A model generated the notes under the pieces. That model made no database searches. It was not told the origin of the DNA and saw only the letters and a list, made by a program, of their open reading frames with translations. This document shows positions 708 through 18,625 of a stretch of 64,000 nucleotides of DNA, in pieces (the stretch's first letter is position 1; each line of letters begins with the position of its first letter). The stretch comes from an uncultured Acidobacteriota bacterium (GTDB lineage Bacteria; Acidobacteriota; Thermoanaerobaculia; Multivoradales; UBA5704): the NCBI GenBank assembly GCA_963770895.1, contig CAVYRF010000002.1:3328001-3392000 (forward strand), read 5' to 3'. Position numbers and translations under genes: made by a program.

Positions 708-2183
708 TTGGTCACGAGCGACGCACAGGTGAGACGACTCATGGAAGAGCTGGAGCGAGAAGGCAGGATCGGCAAAGCCGCCCTACGTGCGGGGATGCAC
801 CGCAACACGGCGCGGCGGTACCGGAAGCTGGGAAAGTTGCCATCGGAGCTGAAGCAGCCGCGGACGTGGCGGACGCGGGAGGACCCGTTTGCCGCGGATT
901 GGCCGGCTTTGGCGCAGCGTCTTTCGGAGGCGCCGGAGCTGGAAGCGAAGGTACTGTTCGAGGATTTGGTGGCGCGGCGTCCGGAGCGTTACGGGCCCGG
1001 GCAGATGCGGACGTTTCAGCGGCGGGTCAAGGTGTGGCGGGCGCAGCAAGGTCCCGCCAAGGAGGTGTTTTTCTCGCAGCAGCATCGGCCGGGTGAGGCG
1101 ATGCAGAGCGACTTCACCTGGGCCAAGGAGCTGGCGATCACGATCGGCGGCAAGCCGTTCAGCCACCTGCTGTGTCAGGCGGTGCTGCCGTACTCGAATT
1201 GGTCGTGGGTGACGGTGTGCTTTTCGGAATCGCTGTCGGCTCTGCGCCGCGGCGTACAGAGCGCGGTGTTCCGGTTGGGGCGGGTACCGCGGTTTCATCA
1301 GACGGATAACTCCACGGCGGCGACGCACGACCTGCGGACGGGCAAGCGCGGCTTCAACGCTGAGTATGAGGCGTTGATGCGTCACTTGGGGATGGAACCG
1401 CGGACCATCGAACCGGGCCAGAAGCATCAGAACGGTGACGTCGAGGCGCTCAACGGCGCGCTCAAGCGCCGGATCGAGCAGCATCTGTTGTTGCGTGGCA
1501 GCCGCGACTTTGCGAGCCAGGAGGCCTACGAATCGTGGCTTGTGGAGGTGATGGAGAAAGCCAACCGGCTGCGCCGCCGTCGGCTGGCTGAGGAGCTGGA
1601 GGCGATGCATGCGCTACGCGTGGATCGTCTGCCGGAGTACAGCGAGGTGGAGGTCCGGGTGAGCAGCTGGAGCACGATTCGCGTCAAGCACAACGCCTAC
1701 TCGGTGCCGTCACGCTTGACCGGCGAGCGGGTACGGGTGCGGCTGTTTGACGCCCGGTTGGAGGTCTTCTACGGCGGCAGTCATCAGCTGACGATCGATC
1801 GGCTGCGCGGCGAAGGGGGTCACCGCATCGACTACCGTCACATCATCTGGTCATTGGTGCGCAAGCCCGGCGCCTTCGCCCGCTACCGCTATCGCGAGGA
1901 GCTGTTTCCAACGCCGGCCTTTCGCCGCGCCTATGACCGACTGCACGCCGCACGGGCGACGCCGCGGGCCGATCTGGAGTACCTGCGGATTCTGCATTTG
2001 GCCGCCTCGACGATGGAGTCGGAGGTGGAGGTGGCGTTGGAGCTGTTGGGCAAGGAGTTGCCATTGTACGAGCGCGTCAAGGGCCTGGTGCAGCCTGCGC
2101 GATCGTTGGCGGCGCCGGCGGTTTCGGAGCCGGTGGTCGACTTGCGTGCTTACGATGCGTTGCTGGCACAGGTGGCGTCATGA
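708..2183 (+). CDS. istA: IS21 transposase IstA
   Basis: N-terminal HTH; DDE motifs (QSDF, TDNS, GDVE); YSVP motif; GGAGGAGG RBS. Confidence 0.95.
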   Translation: MVTSDAQVRRLMEELEREGRIGKAALRAGMHRNTARRYRKLGKLPSELKQPRTWRTREDPFAADWPALAQRLSEAPELEAKVLFEDLVARRPERYGPGQMRTFQRRVKVWRAQQGPAKEVFFSQQHRPGEAMQSDFTWAKELAITIGGKPFSHLLCQAVLPYSNWSWVTVCFSESLSALRRGVQSAVFRLGRVPRFHQTDNSTAATHDLRTGKRGFNAEYEALMRHLGMEPRTIEPGQKHQNGDVEALNGALKRRIEQHLLLRGSRDFASQEAYESWLVEVMEKANRLRRRRLAEELEAMHALRVDRLPEYSEVEVRVSSWSTIRVKHNAYSVPSRLTGERVRVRLFDARLEVFYGGSHQLTIDRLRGEGGHRIDYRHIIWSLVRKPGAFARYRYREELFPTPAFRRAYDRLHAARATPRADLEYLRILHLAASTMESEVEVALELLGKELPLYERVKGLVQPARSLAAPAVSEPVVDLRAYDALLAQVAS

Positions 2184-2947
2184 GCGCGGCGGCGGCAAGT
2201 CTGTCGATCCAGCTGCGGGAGCTCAAGCTGCCGGCGTTCGTGGCCTACCACGCGGAGGTAGCGCAGCGGGCCGAGCAGGGCGGCTGGTCGTTTGAGGAGT
2301 ACCTGGTGCAGCTGACGCAGCTGGAGCTCGACGAGCGCCAACAGCGCAAGCTCGAACGCCTGCGCCGGGCCTCGCAGTTACCGGCGGAGAAGACGCTGGC
2401 GACGCTGGACCTATCGCGTCTTCCGGCCAAGGTCCGTCGCCTCCTGCCCAGCCTGTGCGAGGGCGGCTTCGTCGAGCGGGCGGAGAATCTGCTGGCGTTC
2501 GGCCTGCCCGGTCGGGGCAAGTCGCACACGTTGTGCGCGGTCGGTCACGCGCTGGTCGAGCGCGGCTACAAGGTGCTGTTCACGCCGGCGTACCGGCTGG
2601 TGCAGCGTCTGCTGGTGGCCAAGCGGAACCTCGCGTTGGAGGGCGAGCTGCGCCGTCTGGACGGCTTTGACGCCGTGCTGGTGGACGACATCGGCTACAT
2701 CCAGCAGGACCGCGAGGAGATGGAGGTACTGTTCACGTTTCTTGCCGAGCGCTACGAGCGCAAGAGCGTGCTGATCACCAGCAACCTGGTGTTTTCCCAG
2801 TGGGATCAGATCTTCAAGAACCCGATGACCACGGCCGCGGCGATCGACCGCCTGGTCCACCACGCGGTGATCCTGGAGATGACCGGTCCTAGCCTGCGCT
2901 CGGAAACCGCCGTATTGAAGAATCGCGCCGAGGCAGACAGTGCATAA
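2180..2947 (+). CDS. istB: IS21 helper ATPase IstB
   Basis: Walker A GLPGRGKS, Walker B LVDDIGY, ITSN, AIDRLVHH; ATGA overlap with istA. Confidence 0.96.
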   Translation: MSAAAASLSIQLRELKLPAFVAYHAEVAQRAEQGGWSFEEYLVQLTQLELDERQQRKLERLRRASQLPAEKTLATLDLSRLPAKVRRLLPSLCEGGFVERAENLLAFGLPGRGKSHTLCAVGHALVERGYKVLFTPAYRLVQRLLVAKRNLALEGELRRLDGFDAVLVDDIGYIQQDREEMEVLFTFLAERYERKSVLITSNLVFSQWDQIFKNPMTTAAAIDRLVHHAVILEMTGPSLRSETAVLKNRAEADSA

Positions 2948-3213
2948 GCAAACGCTGCCGGCCTGTGGAAGGTGCCGTCCTGTGGAAAACTGGAGCCGCC
3001 GCCCGCCCCACCTCCAGTTTCCCACAGGACTTGGACCACCCACTCGCGTTTCCCACACCTCCGCACAGGCCCGGCGGCGACTAGGCTCTATGCGCCTGAT
3101 TCCATTGAAGAAAGAAGCTACCCCGAAGGCCGGGCCTGCGGCCCGCCCTTCTCCCCCTACACAATGCACAAGTGTAATTGTCGTCGCTGCACAAGTGTAG
3201 TTGACGCCGGGCA

Positions 3214-3614
3214 ATCCAGGTGTCGAACGCATAGTGCAGGAAGAGGTTGGCCAGCAGCGGACTGAGGACTCCGCCCTGCGGCGTGCCCCTCGTGCGCGGC
3301 TCCACGGTCCCGTCTGCCCGCTGCACGGGGGCGCGAAGCCACCGTGCAACGTACAGGCGGACCCATGGGATGTCGGTGTGGTGCGCCACGGCGCGCTCGA
3401 CGAGATCGTGATCCAGGCTGTCAAAGAACGCCTTGATGTCCAGATCGATGACCCAGTCGGCGGCCCAGCATCGCCTCCTGGCAGTCTCCACGGCGTCGAG
3501 CGCAGACCGGCCAGGTCGATAGGCGAACGAGTCGGGATGGAAGCTTGGCTCCACCAGCGGCTCGAGCACCATCTTCGTGACCGTCTGAGCAACGCGGTCG
3601 GCAACCGTGGGAAT
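3214..3614 (-). pseudogene. ltrA: Group II intron RT, middle part (copy 1; first ~78 codons missing)
   Basis: IPTVADR...GTPQGGVLSPLLAN matches the intact RT; similarity stops abruptly at about 3614. Confidence 0.9.
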
Positions 3615-3621
3615 CGTGGTT

Positions 3622-4530
3622 TCAAATTGCGCCTCTTGCAGTAGTGGTTTGAGTTCGTAGCTTGATCCGCGTCGAACGAGAGACTCTCTGCCGGCAGGCT
3701 TCCTCCACGGCACGCGAAAACGGCACGCTCAAGCGCCCGCCCGCGCCGCGGCGCACGTCAAGCTGGCCGCAAGAGATCCAGTAGTAGACCACGCTCTCCG
3801 CGAGGTCGAGGCGATCGGCGATCTCGGCGACGGTCAACTCGCCGGGGCCGACAAGCGATCGTAGGGGGGCGGGAATCTTGTTCGCATAACGAATCCAGCG
3901 GACGGCGGCGGCGTTGAAGGGACGCCCCGCGCCGGTCGTCAAGCCGGCAGCCGCAAGCTCGGCCACGAGCTCCTCGGCGCTGCGCCCGGAGTGGCGCCTC
4001 ACCAGGTCGATCGCAGCGGCGGGGGTCTGCCGCGGCACGGAGCGAAGGACGACCAGCTCTTCGCTCGCTCCTGTCCGCCAGCGAATGCCCACGCGTATCC
4101 GCGCCCGTCCTCCGAGATCAAGGCAACGTCGGCCACAAGGGTACGCAAGAGGCGTTTGCGATCTTTGGGCGAAGTGGTGGGCGCGGCCCACAGATGAGGT
4201 AAGTCCAGGGCCAACGCTGCCAGATCGTCGCGTGACGGCAAGGGAGCGGCCACCGCCCGCGACGTCGCCAAGGCAGCCTCCGCCTCGCCGAGGACCACCA
4301 GCTTCTCCTCCCAGCGTTGCTCGAGGCTGCGAGCGACCAGACGGTTCTCGGGCTCACAGCGGTGGAACGCCCGCTCCGCCCTCGCTGCCTCGTAGCGGGC
4401 TCGCTCCACTTGGAGTTCTTGCGCTCGGGTGCTGCGCTCCCGTCGCGTGGTGACTTCCTCCGCCGCCGCCAAGGCCAGCGCGATTTGTTCTGGAGCCACG
4501 GCCGCGAGCAGTCGTTCGGCCACCGCGACC
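3622..4530 (-). pseudogene. Large serine recombinase family protein, C-terminal remnant with a frameshift near 4100
   Basis: Coiled coil ERARYEAARAERAF..EPENRLVARSLEQRWEEKL and DRKRLLRTLV continue in another frame into VGIRWRTG and a C-terminal HTH; catalytic N-terminus absent. Confidence 0.75.
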
Positions 4531-4571
4531 CCTTGGTGGCATGGGCGGCATCGCTCCCCATCATCTACTAA

Positions 4572-6074
4572 CTCTACTTTGTCAGATTCGTCGACGAGGT
4601 AGAGGCCCTGGATTCTTGCTGTCGGCGAGAAGCAGAGTCGATAGCGGCTTGACGTTGGCGGTGCCGGCTCTGCACCTGACGGATCGACTCCTCGATGTCG
4701 AGGTCCCGCCGGGGTAAGAGCCGAACGAGCAGATGTTTCACGTCGGCAGCACTCAGGAGAGGAAGAGCCTCGCTCTGCAACTGCTTTTCTTTCAGAATGA
4801 AAAGCAGCGCCATCATGACGAGGGCCATGTGGTGATACCAAGCTTGCCAGCTTCGCGCCTGGTATTCGTCCATGCCGGCCTCGTTCTTGGCTTCCTGGAA
4901 GGCACGTTCGACCCAGTAGCGCTGCCGCTGCATATAAGCCAACCGTTGCAAAGAGGTCTGCTCGGCGGCATTGCTGAAGCTGTACTTGGTGGTGTCGGGC
5001 GCACCGATCTCGCGCGTCACGATCAACTGCCAACAGCGGGCTTGGGTCTCTGTGGCTTCGCGCACCCAGACGCGGCAACGCAGGGCTTGCACACGAAGCT
5101 CCCCTTGGGTCCCGCGCCGGACCCATACTTCTTGCCATGCTGCGGCCGGTTGGCGAGCAACCCATTCGTCCACACGCAAGTCTTCAGCGCGAGACTCCGG
5201 TGTCGCCCGACGTCGTTTGGCCCGACGCGGGTTGTCAAGAAAGACCCGTTGGTCCCGGTGAACATCGATGACAAACGTCTCATCGGCGTCGTCGAGGGCG
5301 CGCAGCAGAGCGCGATCCTGACCATACGTCCCATCCGCCGCCACCCAGGCGAAGTGCACTCCGTTGCGTCGTGCTCGTCGAACCAGATCCAGAGCCAACG
5401 CTGGCTTCGTCTTCATCACGCGGCGCTCAACCGGCACACCCGCCGCGGCACATCGCATTGGATCCTCGACCCACTCCCGCGGCAGGTACAGCTCCGCATC
5501 GATCAGGCTGACCCGCTTGCCTCGCGCCAAGGCGGCGAAGACCGCCACCTGGCAGTTATCCGTCTTGCCCTGCAAGCCGAACCACTGCCGAGCTACGCCC
5601 ACCGACCGAACGCCTTTCTTCGCAAAGCAGGTCTCGTCGAGCAGCAGGCAGGTGTCCTGATCTCCGCCCAACAGCCCGCCGACCTCTTTCGCCACTTGAT
5701 CCATGACGGCTCGCGCATCCCAGGGCGAATGAGCGAGAAAGTGGTGCAGTGCCTGAGCCTCGGTGCCGGGCACCACCTCTGCCATCCGCTGGACGTTGCG
5801 CTTTGCGGCCTGCAACAAACCGCTCAGATACGCCCGTGCTTGCAAGTTCACGTCTCGGGTCCGCAGGCGGAAAAGAAGCGCAAATCCCCGCTGAAAGGCC
5901 AGGAATCGCGCTCCCAGCTCTTGCAGGGGAGCTGGGGCATAGCGTCTCTCCTTCCGACTATGGTCCTTTGAGGGGGGGAAGCATCTGGTCTCGGCGAGAA
6001 ATCATACTTTCCAGCCCAATTCTAAGAGCTAACCGCCTTGGAATCAAGCGCTTCCGAAATCTGACAAAGTAGAG
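4572..6074 (-). mobile_element. IS701-family insertion sequence
   Basis: Perfect 17-bp terminal IRs CTCTACTTTGTCAGATT (4572-4588 / 6058-6074) flanked by a CTAA duplication (4568-4571, 6075-6078). Confidence 0.93.
4574..5851 (-). CDS. IS701-family DDE transposase
   Basis: LDETCFAKKG..SVGVARQ..G..GKTDNCQV, ADGTYG, R..VERAFQEAK, W.HHMAL motifs; the true start may lie further upstream. Confidence 0.92.
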   Translation of the reverse strand: MNLQARAYLSGLLQAAKRNVQRMAEVVPGTEAQALHHFLAHSPWDARAVMDQVAKEVGGLLGGDQDTCLLLDETCFAKKGVRSVGVARQWFGLQGKTDNCQVAVFAALARGKRVSLIDAELYLPREWVEDPMRCAAAGVPVERRVMKTKPALALDLVRRARRNGVHFAWVAADGTYGQDRALLRALDDADETFVIDVHRDQRVFLDNPRRAKRRRATPESRAEDLRVDEWVARQPAAAWQEVWVRRGTQGELRVQALRCRVWVREATETQARCWQLIVTREIGAPDTTKYSFSNAAEQTSLQRLAYMQRQRYWVERAFQEAKNEAGMDEYQARSWQAWYHHMALVMMALLFILKEKQLQSEALPLLSAADVKHLLVRLLPRRDLDIEESIRQVQSRHRQRQAAIDSASRRQQESRASTSSTNLTK

Positions 6075-6094: not shown

Positions 6095-6540
6095 CGGCCG
6101 GCTGTGACCCGCGCCTTCCGCGCCGGCACCGACCGCCGCGGCTTCTGCAAGATCGTTCGGTCAAGACCAACCTCGGGCACCTCGATTCGGCGGCCGGCAT
6201 CGCCGGTCTGATCAAGAGCGTGCTCGCCTTGGAGCACCGGCTCATCCCGCCGAGCTTGCACTGCGCGAGCCCAACCCGGCGGTGCCGTGGGAGGAAACGC
6301 CATTCACCGTCGCCGCCGCCGCGGAGCCCTGGGAGAGCTCCGGCGGGCCGCGGCGGGCAGGCGTCAATTCCTTCCGCATCGGTGGCACCAACGCCCACGT
6401 GGTGCTCGAAGAGGCGCCGCCCGCGGCCGCCTCGGGACCCTCGCGCCCCTGGCAGTTGGTGGTGCTGTCGGCGGCAAACGCCGCCGCGGGCGATCTCGCC
6501 GGCTGGCTCGGTGCTCATCCCGAGGTGCCGCTGGCCCCGC
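6095..6540 (+). pseudogene. Type I PKS ketosynthase C-terminal fragment (frameshifted)
   Basis: [27 protein letters not shown] and [22 protein letters not shown] spread over different frames. Confidence 0.8.
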
Positions 6541-6554
6541 CTGCCCTCGTGCAC

Positions 6555-6794
6555 CGCCTACGCCAGGCGCTTCATGAACGAGCGCAACCGCAGCGCCGCC
6601 GCGACGCTCGCCGACTTCGCCACGGCGCGCGGCTGCTCGCTGCGCGAGCTGGCGTTCTCCTGGCTGCTGCACCGGCCGGTCGTCTCATCGGTCATCGCCG
6701 GCGCCACCAGCGCGTACGGGCCAACGCCGCAGCCCCCGGCCGGCAGCTCACCGCCGAGGATCTCGCTGCGATCGACCGGCTCGCGACGCTCTGA
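6555..6794 (+). pseudogene. Aldo/keto reductase C-terminal fragment
   Basis: [21 protein letters not shown] followed, after a frameshift, by [10 protein letters not shown]. Confidence 0.65.
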
Positions 6795-6935
6795 CGGAGC
6801 GCTCGGCTTCTTGGCGGAGGAGACTAGCCCCATAAGGGCTTGTTTCTTTCTCTTCTTTATTCTAGAATTACTATTCTTGAGGATTCCTTGCATGACGCTG
6901 ACTTCTATACCCTCGGGCTGCTCGACCTAGGCGCA

Positions 6936-9659
6936 ATGCTTGGAAACACAGACCTTACTCAGTCGACAGGCCTGCCCGCTCCCCCGGTCATCGCCCGGCT
7001 CGCAGGCCTATCCGCACAGGCCATCGAATCCCTTACGAGCCCGTCCTGCCTCGCCCTTCTGCAAGCCCGGGAGCTTCTCCAAGCAGAGCTCGAAGAATCC
7101 AGACGATCCATGGCCGAGGCCATCGGCCACGCCCTGCTTGGATTCAACGTTGAGCACCGCCGGTTCCTGCTGGCGATCAAGCGCAGCTGCTTCAACCGCC
7201 GCGAGATCGGGATTCACCGCGAAAAAACACTCTGGAACGTGCTTATCCGGCTTTCCCCCAATCTGGCAGAGAGGATGGCGGCTCTTGAAGATCAACTCCG
7301 CGCGAACGATCTCGCTCTCACCGCCCTTTACAAGCGTGAGCGCACCCGCGAACGACGACATGTCCTCGACCTGATAGAAGACCACCGCTTCTTACGGGGT
7401 GTGGCCCTGGGAAGTCCTGGCTTAGTTCAGAAGATACGCGCTCATGCCCCATCTCTAACGGCTTCCGACCCACTGAAACACCCCGCGAAGTGGGAACAGA
7501 GCCTTCTTCGCTTCGTTACCCGCGCGGCGGCCAAGCTGTCCGCCAACTCGACGCTCACTACCTATGCTTTGGGGAGCATCCAGGCATCGCCATCCTCGCA
7601 AGCCCTGCATTTCGTCCACTCTCCACAAAGAGAGCTTTCATTAGTGCGCGCGGACCGCCCAGAGACCGAGAAGCTCGAAAATCTTCTTCTGCGCCATCCG
7701 GCGGTACGAGCGCGCGCCTTTGTCGCCAGCAACAACAAATGCGAAGAACTCGAGGCGGGGCGGCATCGCTTCCTGCGTGGTGGCCACTGGACCCTCGATC
7801 CTGGCGCGAAAGATCTTCGCTTTGTCGCGCCCTCACGGATTACGCTGAACCTCTCCAACTCGCTCTTGGGAGTTGCCCAAAAAGCTCTCCGTAGCGGTGA
7901 GCTCCGATATGACCGACTGCTGGCTATTCTAAGAGACGCACTTCAAGGGATTCCGATAGCCGACACGCCCAGCACGTGCCCCGAGAGCGCGCTCGATCAA
8001 TTCCTTGACCTCGGACTCCTTGTTCTCATGCCGCCATGGCGACCTTATGATGCCTGGTTGGAGCAACAAATCTGCGAGTTCCTGCGAGCGGTGCCAAACG
8101 CACCCGCTCTTCTCTCGATTGCCGACATCCTGGACGAGCTCCTCGCCGCCGAAAGACGATTCGCTTCAACGCCCCGGCCCGAGACTGCGATCGCCAGCAT
8201 GGAAGATACCTTCTCGCGGCTGCTCAACACGGTTGCCCACCAAGTCGGCCATGAGGGTTCGCTCACAACTCGGCCCCATTTCTTCGAAGACGTGCTCGTA
8301 GAACCCGTGGCGCCCTCAGCAGACAACCGGATACTCATTCAGGTCGCGGCGTCAACGGTTCAGAAGATCCTCGAGAGCGCAACCCTTGTCTCACGCTTTG
8401 CGGGCTTGTTCAACCATCGCCACGACGTTCTGCACACCCTGGCCGCCTGGTGGAAGGATCACGAGCCAAGCCGTCGCGAGATCCCCTTTCTCGTGATCGC
8501 CCAGGGGTTTGCCCCGATCTGGAGCCAGTTCATCCATTTTAACAAGACCGCGAACGCGTCTACCCTCAGCATGTTCGATCCGCTGCAAACGTCTAGTCTC
8601 CGGACGCTGCTGGAATTACGCCGGACACTCCTCGTCAACTACAGAGCTTTGCTGAGCGCATCGCCAACAAAAGATCTCATCTCACCGCAAGATCTCGCAG
8701 AGCTCGTACAGTCGCTTCCCTGCCGCTACGCCCCTCTGGTCGGATCATGCGTCTTCGTCCAACCCATCGATGCCGATGGCGATTACTGGGTGCTCAACGA
8801 TATTCATGAGGGGACGGGCCGCTACTTGAGCCGCGTCACACCACTGTTGGAAAAGCCACTCCAGCAGCGGTTCCTCGACCATCTAACTGCGAGATCGACT
8901 GTCGCTCTCGAAGGAGAGGAGGCCGATCTACTGGAGGTCATGAATCCCTGGGGCAACCTGGTAAATGCGCATCCGCCTCAGGCAGCGAAAGTCTTGGACA
9001 TCCCGGGCCTGCGCCTTGATCTGCCGCCAGCGCGGAGGATCCGGCTCGGCGACCTCACAGTGCAAGCGGATCTCGACGCCGAGGACTTCCGTTTGGTCGA
9101 CGCTTCAGGACGGCGCATGCTCCCCGTCAACCTGAGCACCCTGGCCGATGTCTGGCATCCAAATATCCTACGCTTTCTTCTCGCGTTTGGGCCTGGCCAG
9201 ACTCGCGGTGTCTTTCCCCCTGCGCACTCGGAGGGCGATGATAACCTGTGCAGCTTCGACCGCTTAACCTGCGGCAAGTTGGTGCTACGCCGGCGGCGCT
9301 GGATGATCGCTATCCAATGCCTCCGCGAAGGGTTGCAGGGTCTTTCCGCTCTCGAATCTTACGCTTACGTCCAAACCTGGCGCCGTCGGTTACAGCTGCC
9401 GCAGGTGGGCTTTTATTCCGAGCGCACCTATCATGGTGCATTCAAGCCACAGTATGTTGACCTAAGCTCTCCGTCCCTGTGCGGACTTTTCGTGTCCAGC
9501 CTGAGCAGGATGACGGCTGGACATCTGGTCCTTGAAGAAGCCCTGCCTTCACCCGCAAGCTACCCTTTCGATGTGATGGCAAATCGCCGAGGGCTTGAGC
9601 TTCTGATAGATAGCTTGGCAATCCGTGCCGCTGGTGGAGCTCACTCTGCCAAGGCATGA
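6936..9659 (+). CDS. Lantibiotic dehydratase, glutamylation domain (split LanB / TbtB-like)
   Basis: RAAAKLSANSTLT (cf. RxxxKxSPFSTFT), FFED, GRYLSR, GKLVLRRRRW, KPQYVDLSSP, LEEALP; start uncertain (ORF open from 6840). Confidence 0.88.
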   Translation: MLGNTDLTQSTGLPAPPVIARLAGLSAQAIESLTSPSCLALLQARELLQAELEESRRSMAEAIGHALLGFNVEHRRFLLAIKRSCFNRREIGIHREKTLWNVLIRLSPNLAERMAALEDQLRANDLALTALYKRERTRERRHVLDLIEDHRFLRGVALGSPGLVQKIRAHAPSLTASDPLKHPAKWEQSLLRFVTRAAAKLSANSTLTTYALGSIQASPSSQALHFVHSPQRELSLVRADRPETEKLENLLLRHPAVRARAFVASNNKCEELEAGRHRFLRGGHWTLDPGAKDLRFVAPSRITLNLSNSLLGVAQKALRSGELRYDRLLAILRDALQGIPIADTPSTCPESALDQFLDLGLLVLMPPWRPYDAWLEQQICEFLRAVPNAPALLSIADILDELLAAERRFASTPRPETAIASMEDTFSRLLNTVAHQVGHEGSLTTRPHFFEDVLVEPVAPSADNRILIQVAASTVQKILESATLVSRFAGLFNHRHDVLHTLAAWWKDHEPSRREIPFLVIAQGFAPIWSQFIHFNKTANASTLSMFDPLQTSSLRTLLELRRTLLVNYRALLSASPTKDLISPQDLAELVQSLPCRYAPLVGSCVFVQPIDADGDYWVLNDIHEGTGRYLSRVTPLLEKPLQQRFLDHLTARSTVALEGEEADLLEVMNPWGNLVNAHPPQAAKVLDIPGLRLDLPPARRIRLGDLTVQADLDAEDFRLVDASGRRMLPVNLSTLADVWHPNILRFLLAFGPGQTRGVFPPAHSEGDDNLCSFDRLTCGKLVLRRRRWMIAIQCLREGLQGLSALESYAYVQTWRRRLQLPQVGFYSERTYHGAFKPQYVDLSSPSLCGLFVSSLSRMTAGHLVLEEALPSPASYPFDVMANRRGLELLIDSLAIRAAGGAHSAKA

Positions 9660-9699
9660 GTACGACAGAGAGATGAATCTCTCAGAAAGGAAGTGCAAA

Positions 9700-9861
9700 A
9701 TGTCAGAGACACTGGACCCGAAGGCGGACGTCGAGATCGAGACCCTTTCCGAAGAAGATCTCGATTCGGTCAGTGGTGGGGTCAACAGCGGGGCTCCCGA
9801 CAACACCGGAACCGGAACCTGCGTCAACAACTCAGGGACCGGGACCTGCTCTGGTTCCTAG
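9700..9861 (+). CDS. RiPP precursor peptide, 53 aa: double-glycine leader and Ser/Thr/Cys/Asn-rich core
   Basis: AGAAAGGAAG RBS; MSETLDPKADVEIETLSEEDLDSVSGG | VNSGAPDNTGTGTCVNNSGTGTCSGS; directly downstream of the dehydratase. Confidence 0.9.
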   Translation: MSETLDPKADVEIETLSEEDLDSVSGGVNSGAPDNTGTGTCVNNSGTGTCSGS

Positions 9862-9874
9862 TCTTCGGAGCGAC

Positions 9875-9908
9875 TCCCCGCCCCCGATCGCTTGGTCGGG
9901 GGCGGGGA
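9875..9908 (+). terminator. Strong GC stem-loop after the precursor (mRNA-stabilising or partial terminator)
   Basis: TCCCCGCCCCCGATC-gctt-GGTCGGGGGCGGGGA, a 15-bp stem with one G-U pair; no clear U tract. Confidence 0.7.
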
Positions 9909-9970
9909 ATTCCGGTTCGTTATTCGTCGGACGGGGTTTGGCGCTTACCCACGGCAAGGGAGGTAGTGTG

Positions 9971-11212
9971 ATGGAGCATAATGCGCGATCCTTTAGGGAC
10001 CTGATCGCCCCACTATCCTTCGACGATTTTCTTGCGAATTACTGGGAGAGAACCTTCCTTCATCTTCAGGGTGAGCCTGAACGCTTTGCCGATTATTTCT
10101 CGTCGCGCGATATTGATAGCTGGCTAACCTCGACGCGGTCGGGACTGCCGGACAGCATCATGATCACAGCCCCTGAAGGCGCCGAGGCTCGATCCGACAA
10201 GTGTCGCCCAGGTGATATTGGCGCGGATGCGGTCCATATGGCGTTTGCGAGGGGCTCCTCGCTGGTCCTGAACCACATGGAAGACTGGCCCTCGCTGCAT
10301 CGTCTCGTCAAGGCGCTGGGACGAGACTTTCATGCCGATATCGGCGTGAACGCCTATTTCACTCCCAAAGGAGCGCGGACGCTTCCGATACACACCGATG
10401 AGCATGACGTCTTGATTCTACACCTTGAGGGAGAAAAGGTCTGGCGCCTTCATGAGTTTTCCCTCCTGCAGGTCCGTCTCGCACAGAAGAAGAATCTTCG
10501 GTTTTCCCAGGAATGGTACGGCAGGACCAGTACGCCGCTCCTCGCCGAGATAGTAATCCGGCCCGGCGACCTACTGTACATTCCACGCGGAATGCCGCAT
10601 TTCGCGGTAGCGCAAGACAGCACTTGCCTGCACCTGACGGTGAGCGTGTCACCGTTGTACTGGATGGATTTCCTGAAGATCGCCGCCGAGCAGGCGGCAA
10701 TCTATTCACAGGAGCTGCGGCGAGCACTACCGCCCGGCTTTGTCGACAGCCAAGAGCTCTGCGACCGAATGCGGCGCGCTTTCCCAGACATCATGAGGGC
10801 GTTCCAGGAATTCACTTCCTTCGACGAAGTGCTCGCAGCGATCAAGCGAAACCGAGTGACATTCCAGGGCGCCCCCGCGGATGGCCAATTTGCGCTTTTC
10901 TCATCAACCGATGATCTCGTCGCCGAATCCGAGGTCGAGCGACGCCGAGACGTCCTCTGTGTAGTCGACGAGGTCTTCGACAATGAGCGGAACAAGAAGA
11001 TTGCAATTTGGTTTGCCAATCAATACGTTGCCGGCCCGCCGCACCTGCGACGGACGCTGGAGTTCATCCGCGACCATGCCAAGTTCCGCGTGTCCGAGAT
11101 GCCTGGTCTCGATGAGAACGGCCAGATGATTCTGGTGCGCCGCTTGATCAGGGAGGGCCTATTGCGCCGAGTAGCAGAGCGCACCACGGCGCCAGAGCTC
11201 GTCTTGGCCTGA
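9971..11212 (+). CDS. JmjC/cupin 2OG-Fe(II) oxygenase (YcfD/ROXA-like)
   Basis: FLANYWER, NAYFTP, HTDEHDVLILHLEGEKVW (HxD), PGDLLYIPRGMPH (distal His), HLTVS; GGGAGG RBS. Confidence 0.9.
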   Translation: MEHNARSFRDLIAPLSFDDFLANYWERTFLHLQGEPERFADYFSSRDIDSWLTSTRSGLPDSIMITAPEGAEARSDKCRPGDIGADAVHMAFARGSSLVLNHMEDWPSLHRLVKALGRDFHADIGVNAYFTPKGARTLPIHTDEHDVLILHLEGEKVWRLHEFSLLQVRLAQKKNLRFSQEWYGRTSTPLLAEIVIRPGDLLYIPRGMPHFAVAQDSTCLHLTVSVSPLYWMDFLKIAAEQAAIYSQELRRALPPGFVDSQELCDRMRRAFPDIMRAFQEFTSFDEVLAAIKRNRVTFQGAPADGQFALFSSTDDLVAESEVERRRDVLCVVDEVFDNERNKKIAIWFANQYVAGPPHLRRTLEFIRDHAKFRVSEMPGLDENGQMILVRRLIREGLLRRVAERTTAPELVLA

Positions 11213-11237
11213 GCAGCTTGCGCTACCGCTTTCAGGC

Positions 11238-12314
11238 TCAAGGTAGACGGGAGCCTGGCCTCCCGGGGGGGGCGGCGAGCTTGGCGAGAGCTTTAGAGAG
11301 AAGGTCGCCGAAGGCCGTCCCTGGTTGCTCCACCGCTCCCCACATATTGTGTTTCCGAAGCCAGGACAGGCTCTCTCCGGGTTTGGCGCGAAGCTCGCAA
11401 AAGGTCACGCTCAAGAGCCGGCTAATGTAGACCTCCTCTGCGTTGCAGAGACCCAGCCGCGTCGCGGTCATGTGCAACTGGCTTCCGCCGATACGCGCTC
11501 TGGTCGAGCGGTCGGAGTCTCTGATCGCGTTCGAGAGTCGGCCAGCACCCAGGGCGAGGAGGTCCCCTTCCATGCCGCATGACCCTTCGACCCGCAGCGC
11601 GCGCGCCTCGGCCAAGCTATCACCTAAGAGTTGGAGAAAGGTCGTCATTTTGGAACATGCGACGGCATCCCCCTTTTCGACGACCCTGGGCAGTGCCCCG
11701 CCCCACGAATCCACGCCATACCTGATGAGATCGATCAATTCGAGCTCATCGACCGAGAAACCGAGAGCCTGTCGAAACAGAAGCTGGAGGGCGTGCGCGA
11801 GTTGCACAGACCGCGACACTTCCGCACATTTCGCGAGAAACTGAAGGGCCGCGGCGCTCGACAGCGTGAAGAAGTCGAGCGATGCCCGGAAAAGGACTGG
11901 TCCTCCGTAGCGTTCGACCTCGGGCCGGAACGGCGCAAACCGGAACCAGTTGTCCGGATAGACCGAGTCGTCAGTCTCATTAGGTTCCCCTCTGAGGAGG
12001 GACTCGTTGGTTCGCCGAATCGTCTCCTTGTCAACCGATCGGGTCGAGGGAGTGAGTTGCAAAAAGCGTTGAGCGCACTGCTGCATTGCTTCCTGAATGC
12101 GCTTTCTGCTCCCTGGCCTAATCCGAAGTCGCAGACGGATGTGAGGCCCCCCCAAGGCATAACGGACGAAAAAGAATGCACCGATCTCGTCTTCTCTAAC
12201 AAGAGAGGCAACGAGAGGATGCACAAAGGACCGAACTACCTGATCGAGGCTTTGGTGATAGTAGAGATGACCCGCGATCCAGCTGTTTTGGATTTCCTCG
12301 ATTGTTCCAGGCAT
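11238..12314 (-). CDS. Lantibiotic dehydratase elimination domain (Lant_dehydr_C / TbtC-like)
   Basis: W...HLYY, FFFVRY..GGPHIRLR, PEVERYGG, F..SS, SQLHM..TRLG motifs. Confidence 0.87.
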   Translation of the reverse strand: MPGTIEEIQNSWIAGHLYYHQSLDQVVRSFVHPLVASLVREDEIGAFFFVRYALGGPHIRLRLRIRPGSRKRIQEAMQQCAQRFLQLTPSTRSVDKETIRRTNESLLRGEPNETDDSVYPDNWFRFAPFRPEVERYGGPVLFRASLDFFTLSSAAALQFLAKCAEVSRSVQLAHALQLLFRQALGFSVDELELIDLIRYGVDSWGGALPRVVEKGDAVACSKMTTFLQLLGDSLAEARALRVEGSCGMEGDLLALGAGRLSNAIRDSDRSTRARIGGSQLHMTATRLGLCNAEEVYISRLLSVTFCELRAKPGESLSWLRKHNMWGAVEQPGTAFGDLLSKALAKLAAPPGRPGSRLP

Positions 12315-12560: not shown

Positions 12561-12640
12561 GTTTAGGGGCTGCTTGTCTGTTGCCAGCCCTTTTGGCTGC
12601 CGGTGCCTGAGTAGGTGTCCCATGCTCCGTTTCCACAGCC
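12561..12640 (-). other. Probable group II intron domain VI remnant of a different intron type
   Basis: Minus strand GTGGAAACGGAGCATGG...GGCACCGGCAGCCAAAAGGGCTGGCAACAGAC..CCTAAAC resembles long DVI ends of bacterial introns; no DV or RT attached. Confidence 0.5.
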
Positions 12641-12754
12641 ACCGTTCGGGCCTCCGCCGGCAACGAGCCCCATCTTTTGCCGGACGCTTGCCACTCTAGT
12701 ACGCGAAAGGCCCGATCTGGTCGCGCTCCATACCGTTCCCCCCGCTGTCGCCAA

Positions 12755-12850
12755 ATCCTCGGCGCTGGGCGTTGGGTCGCCGCTGGGATGGGTATGAAAG
12801 AGGGCCATGCCTCCGGCGCCTCGTAGCAGGCACTCCTGCAGACTCACCTG
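12755..12850 (-). pseudogene. RadC/JAB-domain fragment
   Basis: ECLLRGAGGMALFHTHPSGDPTPSAED, a close paralogue of 19955-20040. Confidence 0.75.
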
Positions 12851-12928
12851 CGCTAGCGCACGCAACCCGGCGGCGGCCAGCCCGCCGCCGCCCCTGCGAT
12901 CCGCCCTCGCCCCTCGCCCGGCCGCCGC

Positions 12929-13760
12929 TTACTGGTAGTACCCGTTGACGTCGATCAGCAGATTGAGCGACGAGGCCGAGTCCACCTGCACCTTGACCGA
13001 GCCGGCGCCGTTGTGCGCCAGGCCCATCATCACGTTGTTGGCCAGCACCGCCCCGGCGTTGAACGACACGGTGGTGGAGAGCGGCGACACCGTCTCGTCA
13101 CCCGGATACAGCCGCACGTCGCCGCCGGCACCGGGCTGCACCACCGTGACGTTGGTGGCCAGCGACTTGGCCGTGGTCGGCACCCCGCAGGCGCCCCGCA
13201 GGCGCCGGTGAGCACGAACGTCCGCGTCGAATTCGCCGCCAGCGCCGGCCCGCCCAACGGCCCCGCGGCGTTGCGCGTATCGACCAGGCGACATGGCGTG
13301 ATCGTATGGAACCGCGCCGCCGGCAGATTGTTGAGGTAGTGCGTCGTGGTCGACGCCATCGCGATCCCGTGCCCCGAATCGCGGTCGGTGCCCGCCGACA
13401 TGATGTCGAGCGCCGACTCGAGCATCGCCACGCGCACCTGGTCCGGCGACGGGTGCGTCGGCAGCGACAGCGCGAGCGCCGCCATCGCCGCCGCGTGCGG
13501 CGCCGCCGCCGAGGTGCCGCAGAAGGGGCTGAAGCCGGTCACCGCCGTCGGCACGCAGTCCGCCGCGGTGACGTCGACCTTCGGCAGCACCGTGCCGCCG
13601 TTGGTGGCGATGAGGAAATTGCCCGGCGTGATCGACGTGCCGTTGGGGTTGAAGAAGATGCGGCGCGGGCCGTCCGAGCTGTAGAACTCGACCGCCGTCG
13701 AACCGCTGGCGGTGAACGCCCCGCCCGCCGCCTTCGACACCGGCACCGCCTTGGAGTTGC
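12929..13760 (-). pseudogene. Subtilisin-like S8 peptidase C-terminal fragment with PCRLVDTR-type domain
   Basis: Catalytic GTSAAAPH; 11-bp tandem duplication (CCCGCAGGCGC x2, about 13184-13205) shifts the frame; N-terminus missing. Confidence 0.78.
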
Positions 13761-14070
13761 ACCGAGGCGGACGCCAAGCCCCAGCCCAGAGGCTCGCGCT
13801 ACAGGCCTTGCCCGGCACCAAAGGATCCTCATGTTCGCCACGACGCCGCACCAGCCGATCTGTCCGTGTCCGAATCGCCACCATCGGGTCCGGCCGGCCA
13901 AGGATCCTCGGCCGCAGCAGCTGACTGCCGGGAACTTGAGCAAATCCGTCGTCGACACCCGTGAGCCCCGCCCTTGCCTGTGCGGCTGGAGCGCCAGCCT
14001 CGTTGCCCAAGGTCCTCGCCATGCCCTTGACTGCAAAACGAAAACACCCGGCGCCAGGCGGCAGCCGCCA

Positions 14071-15381
14071 TCAGTTGGTAGACAGCAGCAGCCGCGGCGC
14101 CTGGTTGAGCGTCGTGCCGTCGGCGAGCTTCACCTGCAGAGTCCAACGGTAGGCGCCCGGCTCTGTCGGCATCGTCACGTCGAGCACGTAGTCGCCACGT
14201 TCGGGATCGAGCGCAAGCGGCTGCTGCCTCAGTTGAGTCCCCGTGATCGAGAGCTTGACCGCGGCGTCCTGAATCGGCTTGCCGGCGGCATCCTGCACCA
14301 CTACCGCCAGGCGGTTGGTGTCCCCCGGCACGAAGAACTTGTCGTTCTTGAAGGCCGAGAAGACCATCACCGGCGCCAGTTCCAGGCCCAGGAGGAGCGG
14401 CGTCAGCACCTTCGCCTGCAGCTGATCGTCGCCGTAGAGCTCCGAGTGATCGCACTGCGGCAACGCAAAACGCCGTAGCATCGGGGCCGTGAGTCGATTG
14501 CCGCGGCCGGAGATCTCTGGCACGGTTGAGTCGCCGCGCGGTTGCGGATTGGCAATCTGCAGGCCGCCGGCGGTGGCGCCGGCCGCCGCCACCAAAGTGT
14601 CCAGCCGCGTGCCGTAAACCAGCGCCGCGCGCACGGGCAGCGCATCCGGCAGCCCGCCGACGACGGTGCGCGCAGCCGCCAGGAGCTGCTGCATCGCGGG
14701 TGTCGCGCACCAATCCGGCACGTCCAAGGCCGACCTGGAGACACCCTCCCACAGGAAGAGCTTTTCGGCCGGATTGCTGGGCAGCAGCTCGAAGGCCCCG
14801 GGCGCCGTGCGGGCCGCGGCCATCAAGTCGGCGGCGGAGAACAGGTAGAAGGGGCGTTGGCCCAGCAGCGCCTGGAGGGTTTCGAGCATGCCGTGGTGAG
14901 GCGTGCCGAAAGTGATCAGCCAATCGACCTGATCGGCGAGCTCTGGATGCTGCGCCAGGCAGGCGCGCGCCACCAGGCCCCCTTGACTGTGGGCCAGGAG
15001 GTTGACCTTGGCGGCGCCGCTCTGGGTCAACACGGTGCGGATCTGGCGGCTGAGCTTTTCCACGCTGTCGAGCAGCGAGCGGCGCCAATCGAAGGAGAAC
15101 TCGGACACTGTCAGGTGCAGCGTGTTCCTGAGGAAGTTGAGGAAATCGCGGTACACGTCGAGGCGAAAGAAGCCGGGGATGAGGCTGACCTCTTCGAGGA
15201 TGCCGCCGGCCACCAGGCGATCGGGGTCCGCAGGGTCGAAATGGAGCGCCGCCATGGTCGATCCACCGTCGAGGAGACGTTCGCCGTCGAGCCAGACCAG
15301 CTCGTCGTGGGCCTCCAAGTTGAGCTTCGAGCCGTAGAAGCCAGGCAGAACGATCACCGGATTGAGGGATGGTGCGGGCAC
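14071..15381 (-). CDS. Alpha/beta hydrolase (LCAT/PGAP1-like lipase/acyltransferase) with C-terminal Ig-like domain
   Basis: PVIVLPGFYGSKL, FDWR, AHSQGG nucleophile elbow, GTPHHG, GDSTVP, HSEL. Confidence 0.85.
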   Translation of the reverse strand: MPAPSLNPVIVLPGFYGSKLNLEAHDELVWLDGERLLDGGSTMAALHFDPADPDRLVAGGILEEVSLIPGFFRLDVYRDFLNFLRNTLHLTVSEFSFDWRRSLLDSVEKLSRQIRTVLTQSGAAKVNLLAHSQGGLVARACLAQHPELADQVDWLITFGTPHHGMLETLQALLGQRPFYLFSAADLMAAARTAPGAFELLPSNPAEKLFLWEGVSRSALDVPDWCATPAMQQLLAAARTVVGGLPDALPVRAALVYGTRLDTLVAAAGATAGGLQIANPQPRGDSTVPEISGRGNRLTAPMLRRFALPQCDHSELYGDDQLQAKVLTPLLLGLELAPVMVFSAFKNDKFFVPGDTNRLAVVVQDAAGKPIQDAAVKLSITGTQLRQQPLALDPERGDYVLDVTMPTEPGAYRWTLQVKLADGTTLNQAPRLLLSTN

Positions 15382-15874: not shown

Positions 15875-17536
15875 ATGCTCTTCGGCCGCCTCTTCATCTC
15901 CTCGGTCTTCGGCGGCCTCCTCGACCTGCGCGCCGCCGCCGCCGCGGCGGCGAAGCTCGCCGGCTTCGAGCCGGTGCTGACCGAAACCCACGTCGCACAA
16001 CCCCTCGCCGTTCGCGACGCGCTGACCCGCGAGATCGACGCCTGCGACACCTACCTGGGCCTCTTCGATCAACGTCGAGGCACCGTCCCCAAGACCGGCA
16101 CCGCCGACCATCGGGCGATCACCGAGGAAGAGCTCCGCCTGGCCCGCGAGCGCGGGTTGCGCTGCCTGGTCTTCCTGTCGCGAGACGCAGCCGGCACCCG
16201 CGACCCGCGGCTGACGGAGTTTCTCGACCGTGAGGTCACCGACTACGCCGCCGGCCTGTGGACGCGGCCCTACGACGGCGAGGCCGGCCTGCGGCGCGAG
16301 ATCGTCGCGGCTCTCGCCGCCCTGCGGCCGCGATTGGTCCTCGCCCTCGAGGCGCAACCAAGCGCCGCCCCGGGGGCGTTCCAGGCGAGCCTCGACCTCC
16401 GACCCCTGGGTCCCGCCTGGGCCGGTCCCGCCGCCGCCGGCCCCCTGCCCGCGGACCTCCACCTCGACCCCGGCACCACCGCCGTGCTCGCGGCGTTTCG
16501 CCACGGCGAGGACGCACGCAACCGCCTCGATCCGGCGGCCCTGCAAGTCGCCGGGGCGGCTCTCGCCGGCACCCTGCCAAGCCCCCTGCGCGACGCCCTG
16601 GCCCAGGTGCTCGACATGACCGCCGGCCGCGGGCGGCTGGTACTGCTCGAGGTGCGGTCCGCCGACAGCGGCGTGCTCGGCCTGCCGTGGGAGCTGCTCT
16701 CGCTGCCGGGGCACCCCCTGCCCGTGCGAGAGGGTCTCCTCGAGATCGTCCGCCGGGTCGTGCTCCCCGGAACGCCGGCGGCTCCGGCCCTGGAGCCAGC
16801 GACCGCGGTGCCCGCCGACCGCCTGGACGTCCTCGGCTTCACCGCTTCGCCGATCGAGGATCAGCAGGAGGGCGCCGGCCTCGGCAACGCCGGCCTGACC
16901 GGCGACAGCGATCTCTTCTGGGAGCGCGAGCAGGAGCGCCTGCTCGTCGCGCTCGACGGCTTGGTGCGCCAGGGCCGCGGGAGGCTGACCCTCCCCGAGA
17001 CCGGCGACCGCGACGAGCTCCGCCGGGAGCTGGCGCGCCCCGACCGGCCGCAGCTCGTCCACCTCGCCTGCCACGGCGGCACTCGGCCCGCAACCGACGG
17101 CGCCGCCGAGCCCGTGCTCTATCTCGAAGACGTCGACGCGCATCGCGCCGCCATCGGCCCGGGCGAGTTGCTCGGCTGGTGCCGCGCCACCCCCACCGCC
17201 GCCGACCTCGAGCTGATGGTGCTCGCCGCCTGCAGCACCGCCAGCGCTCCGGCAGCTGGCCGCGCCGGCGGCACCGCCGCCGGCCTGCGCGCCGCAGCCG
17301 CTACGCCACCGCCGCCGGAGGAGGCACCCCCGGCGCGGGGTTTCGCCGAAAGGCTCGTGCGCGGCGGCGTGCCGCGCGTCCTCGCGATGCAGAGCGTGAC
17401 AGCCGATGAGGGCCGGCGGCGCCAGCGAGTGTCTACAGGAAGCAAAGTCTCCGTTGCTCGAAGAGTCTGGGGTAAAGTGCTACAGTTAAGCCATGTGCGC
17501 ATGCGGCCTTCGTCTAAGATGAATTCAAGTCCATGA
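15875..17536 (+). CDS. DUF4062 (TIR-like) + CHAT (caspase-like) domain protein, probably C-terminally truncated near 17410
   Basis: FISS..DLR, CDTYLGL, TEEEL..A (DUF4062); LPWELL, HLACHG, VLAACST, VLAMQ (CHAT); GC drops sharply after 17410. Confidence 0.82.
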   Translation: MLFGRLFISSVFGGLLDLRAAAAAAAKLAGFEPVLTETHVAQPLAVRDALTREIDACDTYLGLFDQRRGTVPKTGTADHRAITEEELRLARERGLRCLVFLSRDAAGTRDPRLTEFLDREVTDYAAGLWTRPYDGEAGLRREIVAALAALRPRLVLALEAQPSAAPGAFQASLDLRPLGPAWAGPAAAGPLPADLHLDPGTTAVLAAFRHGEDARNRLDPAALQVAGAALAGTLPSPLRDALAQVLDMTAGRGRLVLLEVRSADSGVLGLPWELLSLPGHPLPVREGLLEIVRRVVLPGTPAAPALEPATAVPADRLDVLGFTASPIEDQQEGAGLGNAGLTGDSDLFWEREQERLLVALDGLVRQGRGRLTLPETGDRDELRRELARPDRPQLVHLACHGGTRPATDGAAEPVLYLEDVDAHRAAIGPGELLGWCRATPTAADLELMVLAACSTASAPAAGRAGGTAAGLRAAAATPPPPEEAPPARGFAERLVRGGVPRVLAMQSVTADEGRRRQRVSTGSKVSVARRVWGKVLQLSHVRMRPSSKMNSSP

Positions 17537-18410
17537 GATTACCCTTCCGCAACTGGCTGCAGGAGCAGCTTCTCGACCACGACTCGCGTTCGCTCTACGA
17601 CGAGGCGATCCTCTCCTATCAAGTCGGGGCCAATCGTGGCGCGCTGTTACTGTCCTACCTTGCATTTCTGAGAACGATTGCTGGTCGGCTGATGCAGGCT
17701 AGTAAACCTACTTGCATTCCTGAGAGACTTTGGGAAAGCATCCAAGGGGGGCTAAGAAACGACCTGCAATGGGAGCGGCAAGCGTTTGACGCGCTATCGC
17801 GTACGCAGCCGATTTCCATTTTCCTGATAGATGATGAGATCCGCCAGCAGCTGGAATACTGGCGCGGGAGAAGAAACGATGTGGCTCACTCGCGCGGCAA
17901 CGAAATAGGTCAAGCGCACGTCGAGGCTTTTTGGATGTTTGTGCGATCCAATCTATCCAAGTTTGTTGTAAACGGCGGGCGCGAAGGATTGCTAGAGAGA
18001 TTCCGGCGGCACTTCGATCCGGGCCAGACTCCGCCAGACCAGGACTTTACGCATTTGGTTGCAGAGATCTCAAGTGCTGTTAGGCCACAGGAGCGGCGCG
18101 ACTTTTTCAGATCTCTCGTCGAGGCGACCGGAGCATTCGGAGATATAGACATTGCCCAAATGGATTACAGAATAGCGAGCAAGGGTAAGGCTCTGCTCGA
18201 TTCCGTGAGTCGTGTGAATGATGCGGTGCTAATTGAGAATCTGGCCGAGGAGATGCGAGCGCGTCCAGACTTGTTAGTTGCGTGCCTGCTTGCTAGGCCG
18301 CAGCTCGTGCACTGGTTCGGCGAAGATCGCTCTCTCATTAGGTCTCTTTGGCACGACCTTCTTCCACTTGAAGCGTCAATTTATCACGCCCCGCTAATAT
18401 TACTCCGTTA
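17533..18410 (+). CDS. Lower-GC hypothetical protein with putative HEPN motif, 3' end overwritten by an IS remnant
   Basis: EAILSY..GA.RGA N-terminus and RNDVAH (RxxxxH) at 17872-17889; the ORF runs on to 18573 through IS701 DNA. Confidence 0.6.
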
Positions 18411-18625
18411 TGTCATGAGGAGTCATTCTGAAAGGTCCTCCGGCAGACTGGGCAGCATCCGGCCCATCGAACGAGAAGAATCTGGAGCTTCTGACGGGTC
18501 TGGGGAAGGGTCCAGGATGGAGTTTTTTTGGAGCGAAGCGTCTCCAAGGCGAGAAACGCATAGGCGAGGCTGACCAAGGTCACGTGATGGTGCCAACCTC
18601 TCCACGAACGGCCCTCAAAATGGGG
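18395..18625 (-). mobile_element. IS701-family transposase 3' remnant
   Basis: HFEGRSWRGWHHHVTLVSLAYAFL...CPVC. Confidence 0.8.

Follow-up and report, generated by a model that had tools for sequence, protein, structure and literature searches.

The window considered here is a stretch of 64,000 nucleotides (nt) from an uncultured Acidobacteriota bacterium (assembly GCA_963770895.1, contig CAVYRF010000002.1, positions 3,328,001 to 3,392,000). The part of it that was analysed, 6936-12314, carries four genes for what appears to be the biosynthetic core of a ribosomally made and post-translationally modified peptide (RiPP). A sequence-only reading had picked out this block, and the list of open reading frames has all four genes intact at just the coordinates claimed:

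6936 to 9659, forward strand: split-LanB glutamylation protein of the LanB N-terminal type, 907 amino acids (aa) (open reading frame; family profile)
9700 to 9861, forward strand: precursor peptide, 53 aa (open reading frame; alignment of 20 homologues; same position in relatives)
9971 to 11212, forward strand: JmjC, ribosomal-oxygenase-like protein of the Fe(II)/2-oxoglutarate (2OG) type, 413 aa (PF08007, E 2.4e-23)
11238 to 12314, reverse strand: stand-alone LanB C-terminal (glutamate-elimination) domain protein, 358 aa (PF14028, E 3.9e-31)

The eliminase gene is convergent with the JmjC gene. Neither LanC (sought with PF05147) nor YcaO was found within the window. There is little doubt about the gene identities and about the conservation of this LanC-less architecture in relatives, and on that basis we read the locus as the core of a RiPP pathway conserved in a family of Acidobacteriota clusters. 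For comparison 96 loci, 18 from genomes and 78 from metagenomes, were fetched (the L-numbers below) and annotated with local hidden Markov models (HMMs).

Glutamylation and elimination on two polypeptides

The 907-aa protein is not recognised by the usual models. Pfam gives no match to it even at E up to 10, NCBIfam likewise none, and a phmmer search of PDB gave a weak match to a goadsporin protein (9jhq_A, E 5.3e-5). A profile built from 25 members of its family scores E 2.1e-43 with the split-LanB glutamylase TbtB (6ec7_A) and E 1.3e-25 with 9jhq_A, and it is due to these matches that, despite the silence of Pfam and NCBIfam, it is taken to be a divergent stand-alone glutamylation protein; PF04738 is precomputed on several of its relatives. 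Of the three domain searches proposed at the outset, PF14028 and PF08007 match as expected, but PF04738 misses the 907-aa copy, the identity of which needed the family profile. There is an alternative upstream start, TTG at 6840, and the database copy has 923 aa. The homologues number 77 and are 34-68% identical; nearly all are unnamed, and those with names are Thermoanaerobaculia proteins or proteins from Acidobacteriota metagenome-assembled genomes (MAGs).

The open frame of the eliminase extends to 12623, homologue starts being near 12314. In addition to PF14028 the protein matches TIGR03891 with 77.3 bits, which is over the cut-off of that model, and its profile aligns with the C-terminal domain of NisB across two Arg-containing motifs. 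In 15 of 15 homologues there is no variation at R60, R62, R135 and H281, which would include the catalytic Arg/Arg/His set of LanB elimination domains. Could this SpaB_C-type gene (11238-12314) specify a [4+2] pyridine synthase instead? That candidate was rejected, as the pyridine-synthase model NF045556 gives it 57.2 bits against a cut-off of 325 and it has kept the NisB-type elimination motifs; the gene is read as one for an eliminase, not for a [4+2] cyclase. There is one Lant_dehydr_C gene in the cluster and there are two in the genome. All the columns that are invariant in the family alignments, catalytic ones included, are kept in the four proteins of the window.

The precursor

The precursor has an acidic leader of 27 aa ending in Gly-Gly and a core of 26 aa with two Asn-(Ser/Thr)-Gly-Thr-Gly-Thr-Cys units (N-[ST]-G-T-G-T-C). 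All 20 aligned homologues have the Gly-Gly at positions 26-27, and the other invariant columns of that alignment are L16, L21, S23 and the two Cys. Homologous peptides occupy the same position in relatives, and their leaders are strongly conserved. In the LanC-less clade described below the cores have two to five Gly-rich repeats, each with one terminal Cys and with Ser or Thr 3-5 residues upstream of it; in most repeats Thr is immediately before the Cys, and some relatives have up to five identical repeats. The relatives that contain LanC have differing cores, often with Cys-Cys. Near some clusters there are additional double-Gly precursor genes with different Cys-containing cores (L015 at about 8532, L016 at about 18279, L033 at about 8434, L089 at 543 and 1041), so that some loci may process several peptides.

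A conserved gene set without LanC and YcaO

Are the four genes together by chance? Glutamylase, precursor, JmjC and reversed eliminase follow one another without intervening genes in 17 loci besides the window, all of them from Acidobacteriota or soil, and chance assembly can be dismissed on that account. Twelve of the 18 genome loci and 5 of the 78 metagenome loci are of this kind; the other metagenome contigs are for the most part too short or have other architectures. The two sets of complete loci, as annotated with the local HMMs, are:

LanC-less four-gene loci (17): L011-L016, L018-L022, L027, L032, L035-L037, L099
Loci with LanC between JmjC and eliminase (11): L023, L028, L038, L039, L042-L044, L059, L068, L069, L098

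By the local LanC HMM there is no LanC inside the gene set in any of the 17 loci with the window's architecture. The conservation that the sequence-only reading had wished to see in gene neighbourhoods is thus there in all 17 complete loci, and its worry that homologues would routinely have LanC applies to the more distant loci and not to the near relatives. No YcaO is linked to the cluster in five of five relatives' genomes, where PF02624 matches are at least 92 kb away or absent (wholly so in two), and a local single-sequence YcaO model has no match in the 96 loci; the window's own genome has a single YcaO, on the contig here called C1.

In eleven further loci the contig ends after JmjC. Two loci, L024 and L026, are decaying copies, in which the JmjC gene is broken into 3-4 pieces and the eliminase is missing. 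Most of the others are LanC-glutamylase-eliminase sets that lack JmjC, variants with B12-radical S-adenosylmethionine (SAM) genes, or short fragments. Two members of the wider family without LanC, L040 (7188-11496) and L074 (13399-15729), have a B12-binding radical SAM gene between glutamylase and eliminase, the former with a second Lant_dehydr_C gene too, and both may be further undescribed variants.

How far from such a cluster is the nearest LanC? In the fetched DNA of the 17 LanC-less loci it is present only in L035, as part of an adjacent second split-LanB set, and a LanC-bearing split-LanB set is just outside the locus in L022. These second sets, at 1-2856 of L022 and 2812-8767 of L035, have their own Cys-rich double-Gly precursor. 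For the four loci on long named contigs, L013, L014, L016 and L018, whole-genome searches with PF05147 place the nearest LanC 84, 288, 546 and 358 kb away, respectively. No stand-alone LanC was found in the genomes of L018 and L019, where LanC domains are only in frames of >850 aa, though both are MAGs and absence from them is unproven.

Descent

In the glutamylase tree all loci with a linked JmjC gene are in one clade of 30 rows (support 100), and the window belongs to a 17-row clade (support 100), LanC-less throughout, sister to L013. A further trio without LanC has as its sister a clade with both JmjC and LanC (support 93, below the mark of the tool), which suggests, and does not prove, two losses of LanC. 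Near relatives have JmjC without LanC, 11 distant loci have both, and still more distant ones have LanC without JmjC. As judged from this tree the locus is a LanC-less derived offshoot of split-LanB, class-I-like lanthipeptide clusters and not an unrelated system. The proposal that the set fits none of the known classes and may be a new subclass was right in that a set lacking LanC and YcaO is real and conserved, but it appears to descend from class-I-like split-LanB clusters.

The JmjC protein

Besides its PF08007 match the JmjC protein matches NO66 (E 8.4e-25), MINA53 (1.1e-17), YcfD, and YxbC/1vrb (8e-10), the PDB title of which is 'putative asparaginyl hydroxylase'. It has three domains: a JmjC barrel, a helical domain and a C-terminal winged-helix-like domain. 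An early AlphaFold2 run with 15 sequences (predicted local distance difference test, pLDDT, 54) was discarded and redone with 137 sequences, and the resulting model has a pLDDT of 95.3 and a predicted template modelling score of 0.91. In Foldseek this model matches NO66 (E 7e-30, query template modelling score, TMq, 0.70) and MINA53 (TMq 0.73) over all three domains, in ~440-460 columns. The metal ligands H141, D143 and H210, and K156, are intact in the window copy and align with the ligand motifs of NO66. In the wider family (1468 representatives at E at most 1e-30) all four are retained in 128 of 137 members, each being at least 90% conserved.

Among the copies that are linked to this LanB family the picture is different. 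Of 37 such copies 24, the window's included, have the full set of four residues, and 13 have lost it. Every one of these 13 is full-length and belongs to the LanC-less clade, and the ratio of non-synonymous to synonymous substitution for them, 0.16-0.34, is in the same range as that for the glutamylase of the same pairs, 0.16-0.46. Full length together with purifying selection points to a selected role independent of iron and 2OG, and the JmjC protein thus has a non-oxygenase role in the family. To have called the gene that of a 'JmjC oxygenase' was justified for the window copy, where the ligands are intact, but oxygenation is not the whole role of a protein that has lost its metal site in 13 of 37 homologues.

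What might the window's enzyme hydroxylate? Where the ligands are intact, 33 of 38 Cys units have an Asn just upstream, compared with 15 of 50 Cys units where the ligands are degenerate; in making this count no core was found for nine loci and one duplicate was dropped, and the Fisher p of 1e-7 makes the case look stronger than it is since the sequences are related. Asn hydroxylation is the best guess for it.

A LanC-like metal mechanism in the JmjC protein was also considered and is unsupported, there being no conserved Zn-type Cys/His cluster and C330 being the sole invariant Cys. Co-folding of JmjC with the precursor gave 0.48, 0.58 and 0.53 in three runs (score 0.53), the best of three controls giving 0.02, a result that counts as weak support and is a hint only. 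Of 80 solved complexes 58 reach the mark used, as do 2 of 110 mismatched pairs; those that do so at no more than 0.60 are 7 of the 80 and both mismatches. Partner pLDDT was at least 48 and contact agreement at least 53%. As the alignments were our own, these benchmark counts are a rough guide. Every LanC-less locus keeps the JmjC gene, ligand-less copies are under selection, and there is the weak co-fold. Together these leave room for a bolder idea, namely that in this clade the split LanB cannot do without JmjC as a partner, for a purpose other than oxygenation: JmjC would be a scaffold on which the leader docks, a template on which Cys is added, or both, and would stand in functionally for LanC. 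We consider it unlikely. If it were true, thioether rings would be made by a LanC-independent, JmjC-fold-assisted route in which oxygenase activity is optional, retained by the window's copy and lost in a third of relatives.

Surroundings and probable horizontal origin

The guanine plus cytosine (GC) content of the four-gene core is 0.592 whereas that of the genome, of 8.16 Mb, is 0.707. The flanking features are:

4574 to 5851, reverse strand: DDE_5 transposase, left boundary (Pfam; GC step)
6282 to 6794, forward strand: ketosynthase C-terminal fragment, left boundary (Pfam; GC step)
12563 to 14022, reverse strand: short unassigned frames and subtilase fragment, the right boundary overall (open reading frames, Pfam, GC)
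13030 to 14022, reverse strand: subtilase (Peptidase_S8) C-terminal fragment, right boundary (Pfam)

To the left of the core there are also an IS21 pair and a reverse-transcriptase fragment, and at the right boundary GC climbs from 0.55 to 0.68-0.73. The description of a lower-GC block bounded by gene debris is accurate. The family is rare: of 401 genomes sampled from the phylum, 2 have it (E at most 1e-100). The second of the two, which coincides with L028, is from the same taxonomic family as the window's genome, is of the LanC-containing type and is only 39% identical. From the GC contrast and this rarity the core looks horizontally acquired, within an island rich in mobile elements. No direct or inverted repeats bracketing the core were found, so that a composite transposon is without evidence.

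The island, at 708-5851 of the window together with 2377-4650 and 15719-19689 of L010, contains IS21 istA/istB, the reverse-transcriptase fragment, the DDE_5 transposase, a large serine recombinase, an rve fragment and a tyrosine integrase. Beyond the right boundary there is a 47-nt direct repeat, 91% identical, at 12754-12800 and 19954-20000 (spacing 7.2 kb), which encloses a lipase-like gene (14071-15381), a DUF4062-CHAT gene (15875-17536) and a second sharp low-GC block. The latter, at 17500-18500, has a GC of 0.54 compared with 0.75 on both sides and has a 346-aa frame (17533-18573) inside it. Among sequencing runs, two DNA runs from one soil study contain 0.24 and 0.11 of the words, and no RNA run is listed.

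The exporter and regulator are elsewhere

In relatives the core is between a divergent regulator, of the adenylate/guanylate-cyclase-AAA-TPR type, and an exporter run consisting of a cyclic nucleotide monophosphate (cNMP)-binding protein, an ABC transporter, a C39-peptidase-containing ABC transporter (PCAT), HlyD and an outer-membrane factor (OEP). None of these exporter and regulator genes is in the window. Their homologues in the same genome are together at C1:1780086-1792060 and are 56-72% identical to those of L011 (PCAT 72%), with an outer-membrane factor that is 44% identical to that of L019. The invariant Gly-Gly of the precursor is accompanied in relatives by a cluster-encoded PCAT, here found only on this other contig. 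On C1 just 114 bp separate the cNMP-binding gene from the regulator, and this is the slot that the core occupies in relatives. GC is lower in the core than in its flanks in most relatives too, and with the empty slot this fits a core that is a cassette moving between shared export modules. The alternative that the locus is a truncated known type is correct as regards the cNMP-binding, PCAT, HlyD, OEP and cyclase-regulator genes, which are on C1, but not as regards LanC. The complete export and regulator module is at ~3915-17400 of L029 (C1:1776001-1796000), with the empty slot at 12592-12707, and after the regulator (near 17344, reverse strand) there is a Nif11-like double-Gly peptide with a short Trp/Pro-rich core, similar ones being present next to the regulator in many relatives.

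A proposed pathway and its alternatives

The reading that we favour, with a probability of about 0.55 for the whole chain, is that of a split-LanB RiPP core that has shed LanC and would act as follows. The acidic double-Gly leader would dock the 53-aa precursor on the enzymes. On homology to TbtB, the goadsporin protein and NisB, the 907-aa protein would glutamylate Ser and Thr of the core with Glu-tRNA(Glu) and the eliminase would remove the glutamate to leave dehydroalanine and dehydrobutyrine. JmjC would hydroxylate the core, the Asn heading each repeat being, from the correlation across relatives, the most likely target. The Cys that ends each repeat would add to a dehydro residue 3-5 positions upstream, whether unaided or with JmjC as a template, and close two small (methyl)lanthionine rings with no LanC encoded in the cluster, and this is the least certain step. 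Finally, as gene content indicates, the C39-peptidase ABC exporter specified by C1 may cleave after Gly-Gly and export the product. Taken by themselves, Asn hydroxylation and LanC-independent ring formation have odds that we put at somewhat below even. The product would most likely be a dehydrated and probably Asn-hydroxylated peptide with its two Cys in small thioether rings made without a dedicated LanC.

Several points weigh against this pathway. Dehydration, hydroxylation and ring formation are all deduced from sequence. Two stand-alone LanC-like genes are some 12 kb upstream and could act in trans, and a second, LanC-bearing cluster adjoins the LanC-less one in L022, L035 and possibly L017. 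The core is apart from its exporter, among transposases, and may be silent. The Asn correlation is from related, and so non-independent, sequences, and several cores have no Asn at all. The glutamylase tree, of 55 rows, is from a quick maximum-likelihood search and not a finished careful one, and for short-contig genomes the correspondence of numbered to named contigs was assumed.

Is it then an ordinary class I lanthipeptide pathway whose rings are closed in trans by a stand-alone LanC encoded elsewhere? The obvious source is the pair just mentioned:

-7512 to -5117 of the window: tandem pair of LanC-like genes (PF05147) next to a MacB/FtsX permease, ~12 kb upstream of the cluster

Of the 14 LanC-like matches in the genome 9 lie in frames of 392-600 aa, and there is only one full LanB plus one other Lant_dehydr_N, so that most of the genome's LanCs are orphans; between the pair and the cluster there are only mobile-element genes (integrase, transposases), and L022 and L035 show that a LanC-bearing cluster can be next door. 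However, the nearby LanCs are 24-33% identical, over partial lengths, to those that accompany this LanB family and group with the other stand-alone LanC paralogues of the genome, in a deep clade apart, and on this phylogeny the pair was rejected as the lost partner of the cluster. Furthermore, 15 of the 17 LanC-less loci have no LanC in their fetched flanks, the MAGs of L018 and L019 yielded no stand-alone one (an absence that is unproven), and the LanC-less state is uniform in the 17-row clade. A LanC acting in trans is accordingly considered the less probable arrangement, if one to be taken seriously. The MacB/FtsX-type permease gene followed by the tandem LanC pair is at 9642-15195 of L010 (window -10358 to -4805), with no LanB nearby.

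A further alternative is that the core is a stranded, silent relic, cut off from promoter, regulator and exporter by mobile-element rearrangement or horizontal transfer. Its flanks, with their transposase, IS21 pair and fragments of reverse-transcriptase, polyketide synthase and subtilase genes, are what one would expect of such a relic, as are the removal of exporter and regulator to a contig with an empty slot and the decay of the same cluster in L024 and L026. A promoter scan gave one sigma-70-like site where 1.4 are expected, with no convincing promoter, and a terminator scan was uninformative. However, the four frames are intact and full length with every family-invariant column kept, and a PCAT exporter 72% identical to one encoded in a relative's cluster is present in trans, so that silence seems improbable.

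The remaining alternative, a linear dehydrated (and hydroxylated) peptide with no lanthionine, its Cys being free or otherwise modified, or else oxidative Cys chemistry by JmjC, could appeal to the lack of a cyclase in the cluster, the versatility of Fe/2OG enzymes and the Thr before Cys that ordinary rings do not need, but is rather improbable given that every LanC-less core seen keeps one Cys per repeat with Ser or Thr at small-lanthionine-ring spacing, that relatives with similar leaders carry LanC, making thioether formation the ancestral chemistry, and that the ligand-less JmjC homologues preclude oxidative Cys chemistry as the common step of the family.

Comparison with known systems

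Why might such a family have escaped attention? Lanthipeptide mining tools and surveys are anchored on LanC, according to Walker et al. 2020, and due to that anchoring a LanB family that sheds LanC is invisible to them. No description of a LanC-less family of split LanB with JmjC was found in open-access text, though a supplementary cluster table could list it. The family is nature's own test of whether a cyclase is needed at all for thioether rings in Gly-rich repeats, and its repeated small-ring cores are simple, easily expressed test substrates. It also shows a JmjC fold retained for something besides oxygen chemistry, and the empty exporter slot suggests that cores for biosynthesis travel, cassette-like, from one shared export module to another.

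The peptide aminoacyl-tRNA ligases (PEARLs) are LanB-N-like enzymes that, without an elimination partner, add amino acids at the C-terminus of a scaffold peptide; the window in contrast has a conserved elimination-domain gene adjoining the glutamylase. Pyritides share with it a split LanB without YcaO and a protein of the SpaB_C fold, but they need a second SpaB_C-like protein, the [4+2] pyridine synthase, and the window has a single SpaB_C-type gene with NisB-type elimination motifs. Thiopeptide and goadsporin systems provide, in TbtB/TbtC and GodF/GodG, the solved structures nearest to the 907-aa protein by profile and also a stand-alone elimination protein. However, the window's cluster has no linked YcaO or azole machinery and no pyridine synthase.

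For the JmjC protein NO66, MINA53 and YcfD have the same whole three-domain fold and the HxD...H plus Lys ligands, but at 15-24% identity, and the window's protein is in a RiPP cluster with, likely, a small peptide as substrate. JmjC Fe/2OG hydroxylases that act on RiPP precursors are described in the available portions of the reports on BipG (biphenomycin, PMC12707348) and CzlI (curacozole, PMC11575548). They differ in belonging to clusters with multinuclear non-haem iron oxidative (MNIO) and radical SAM enzymes or to azole clusters, not to LanB ones, and in having ornithine and phenylalanine as targets, and those portions report no case of a gene that was kept after its product had lost the metal site. 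A survey of RiPP recognition elements, again from part of its text, has PF08007 homologues in RiPP-like contexts (PMC12710340).

Also close are the class I lanthipeptide clusters with a split LanB of the pinensin and SapT type, in which likewise glutamylation and elimination are on two polypeptides and a Ser/Thr/Cys-rich core is behind a leader; for these features part of PMC7268733 and abstracts were the source, and the likeness is one of description and not of sequence comparison. The more distant members of the window's family resemble them also in carrying LanC. The clade to which the window belongs differs in having no LanC in the cluster and an obligatory JmjC-type gene between precursor and eliminase, and its relatives differ in exporting by a set of Gram-negative type, C39-ABC, HlyD and OEP.

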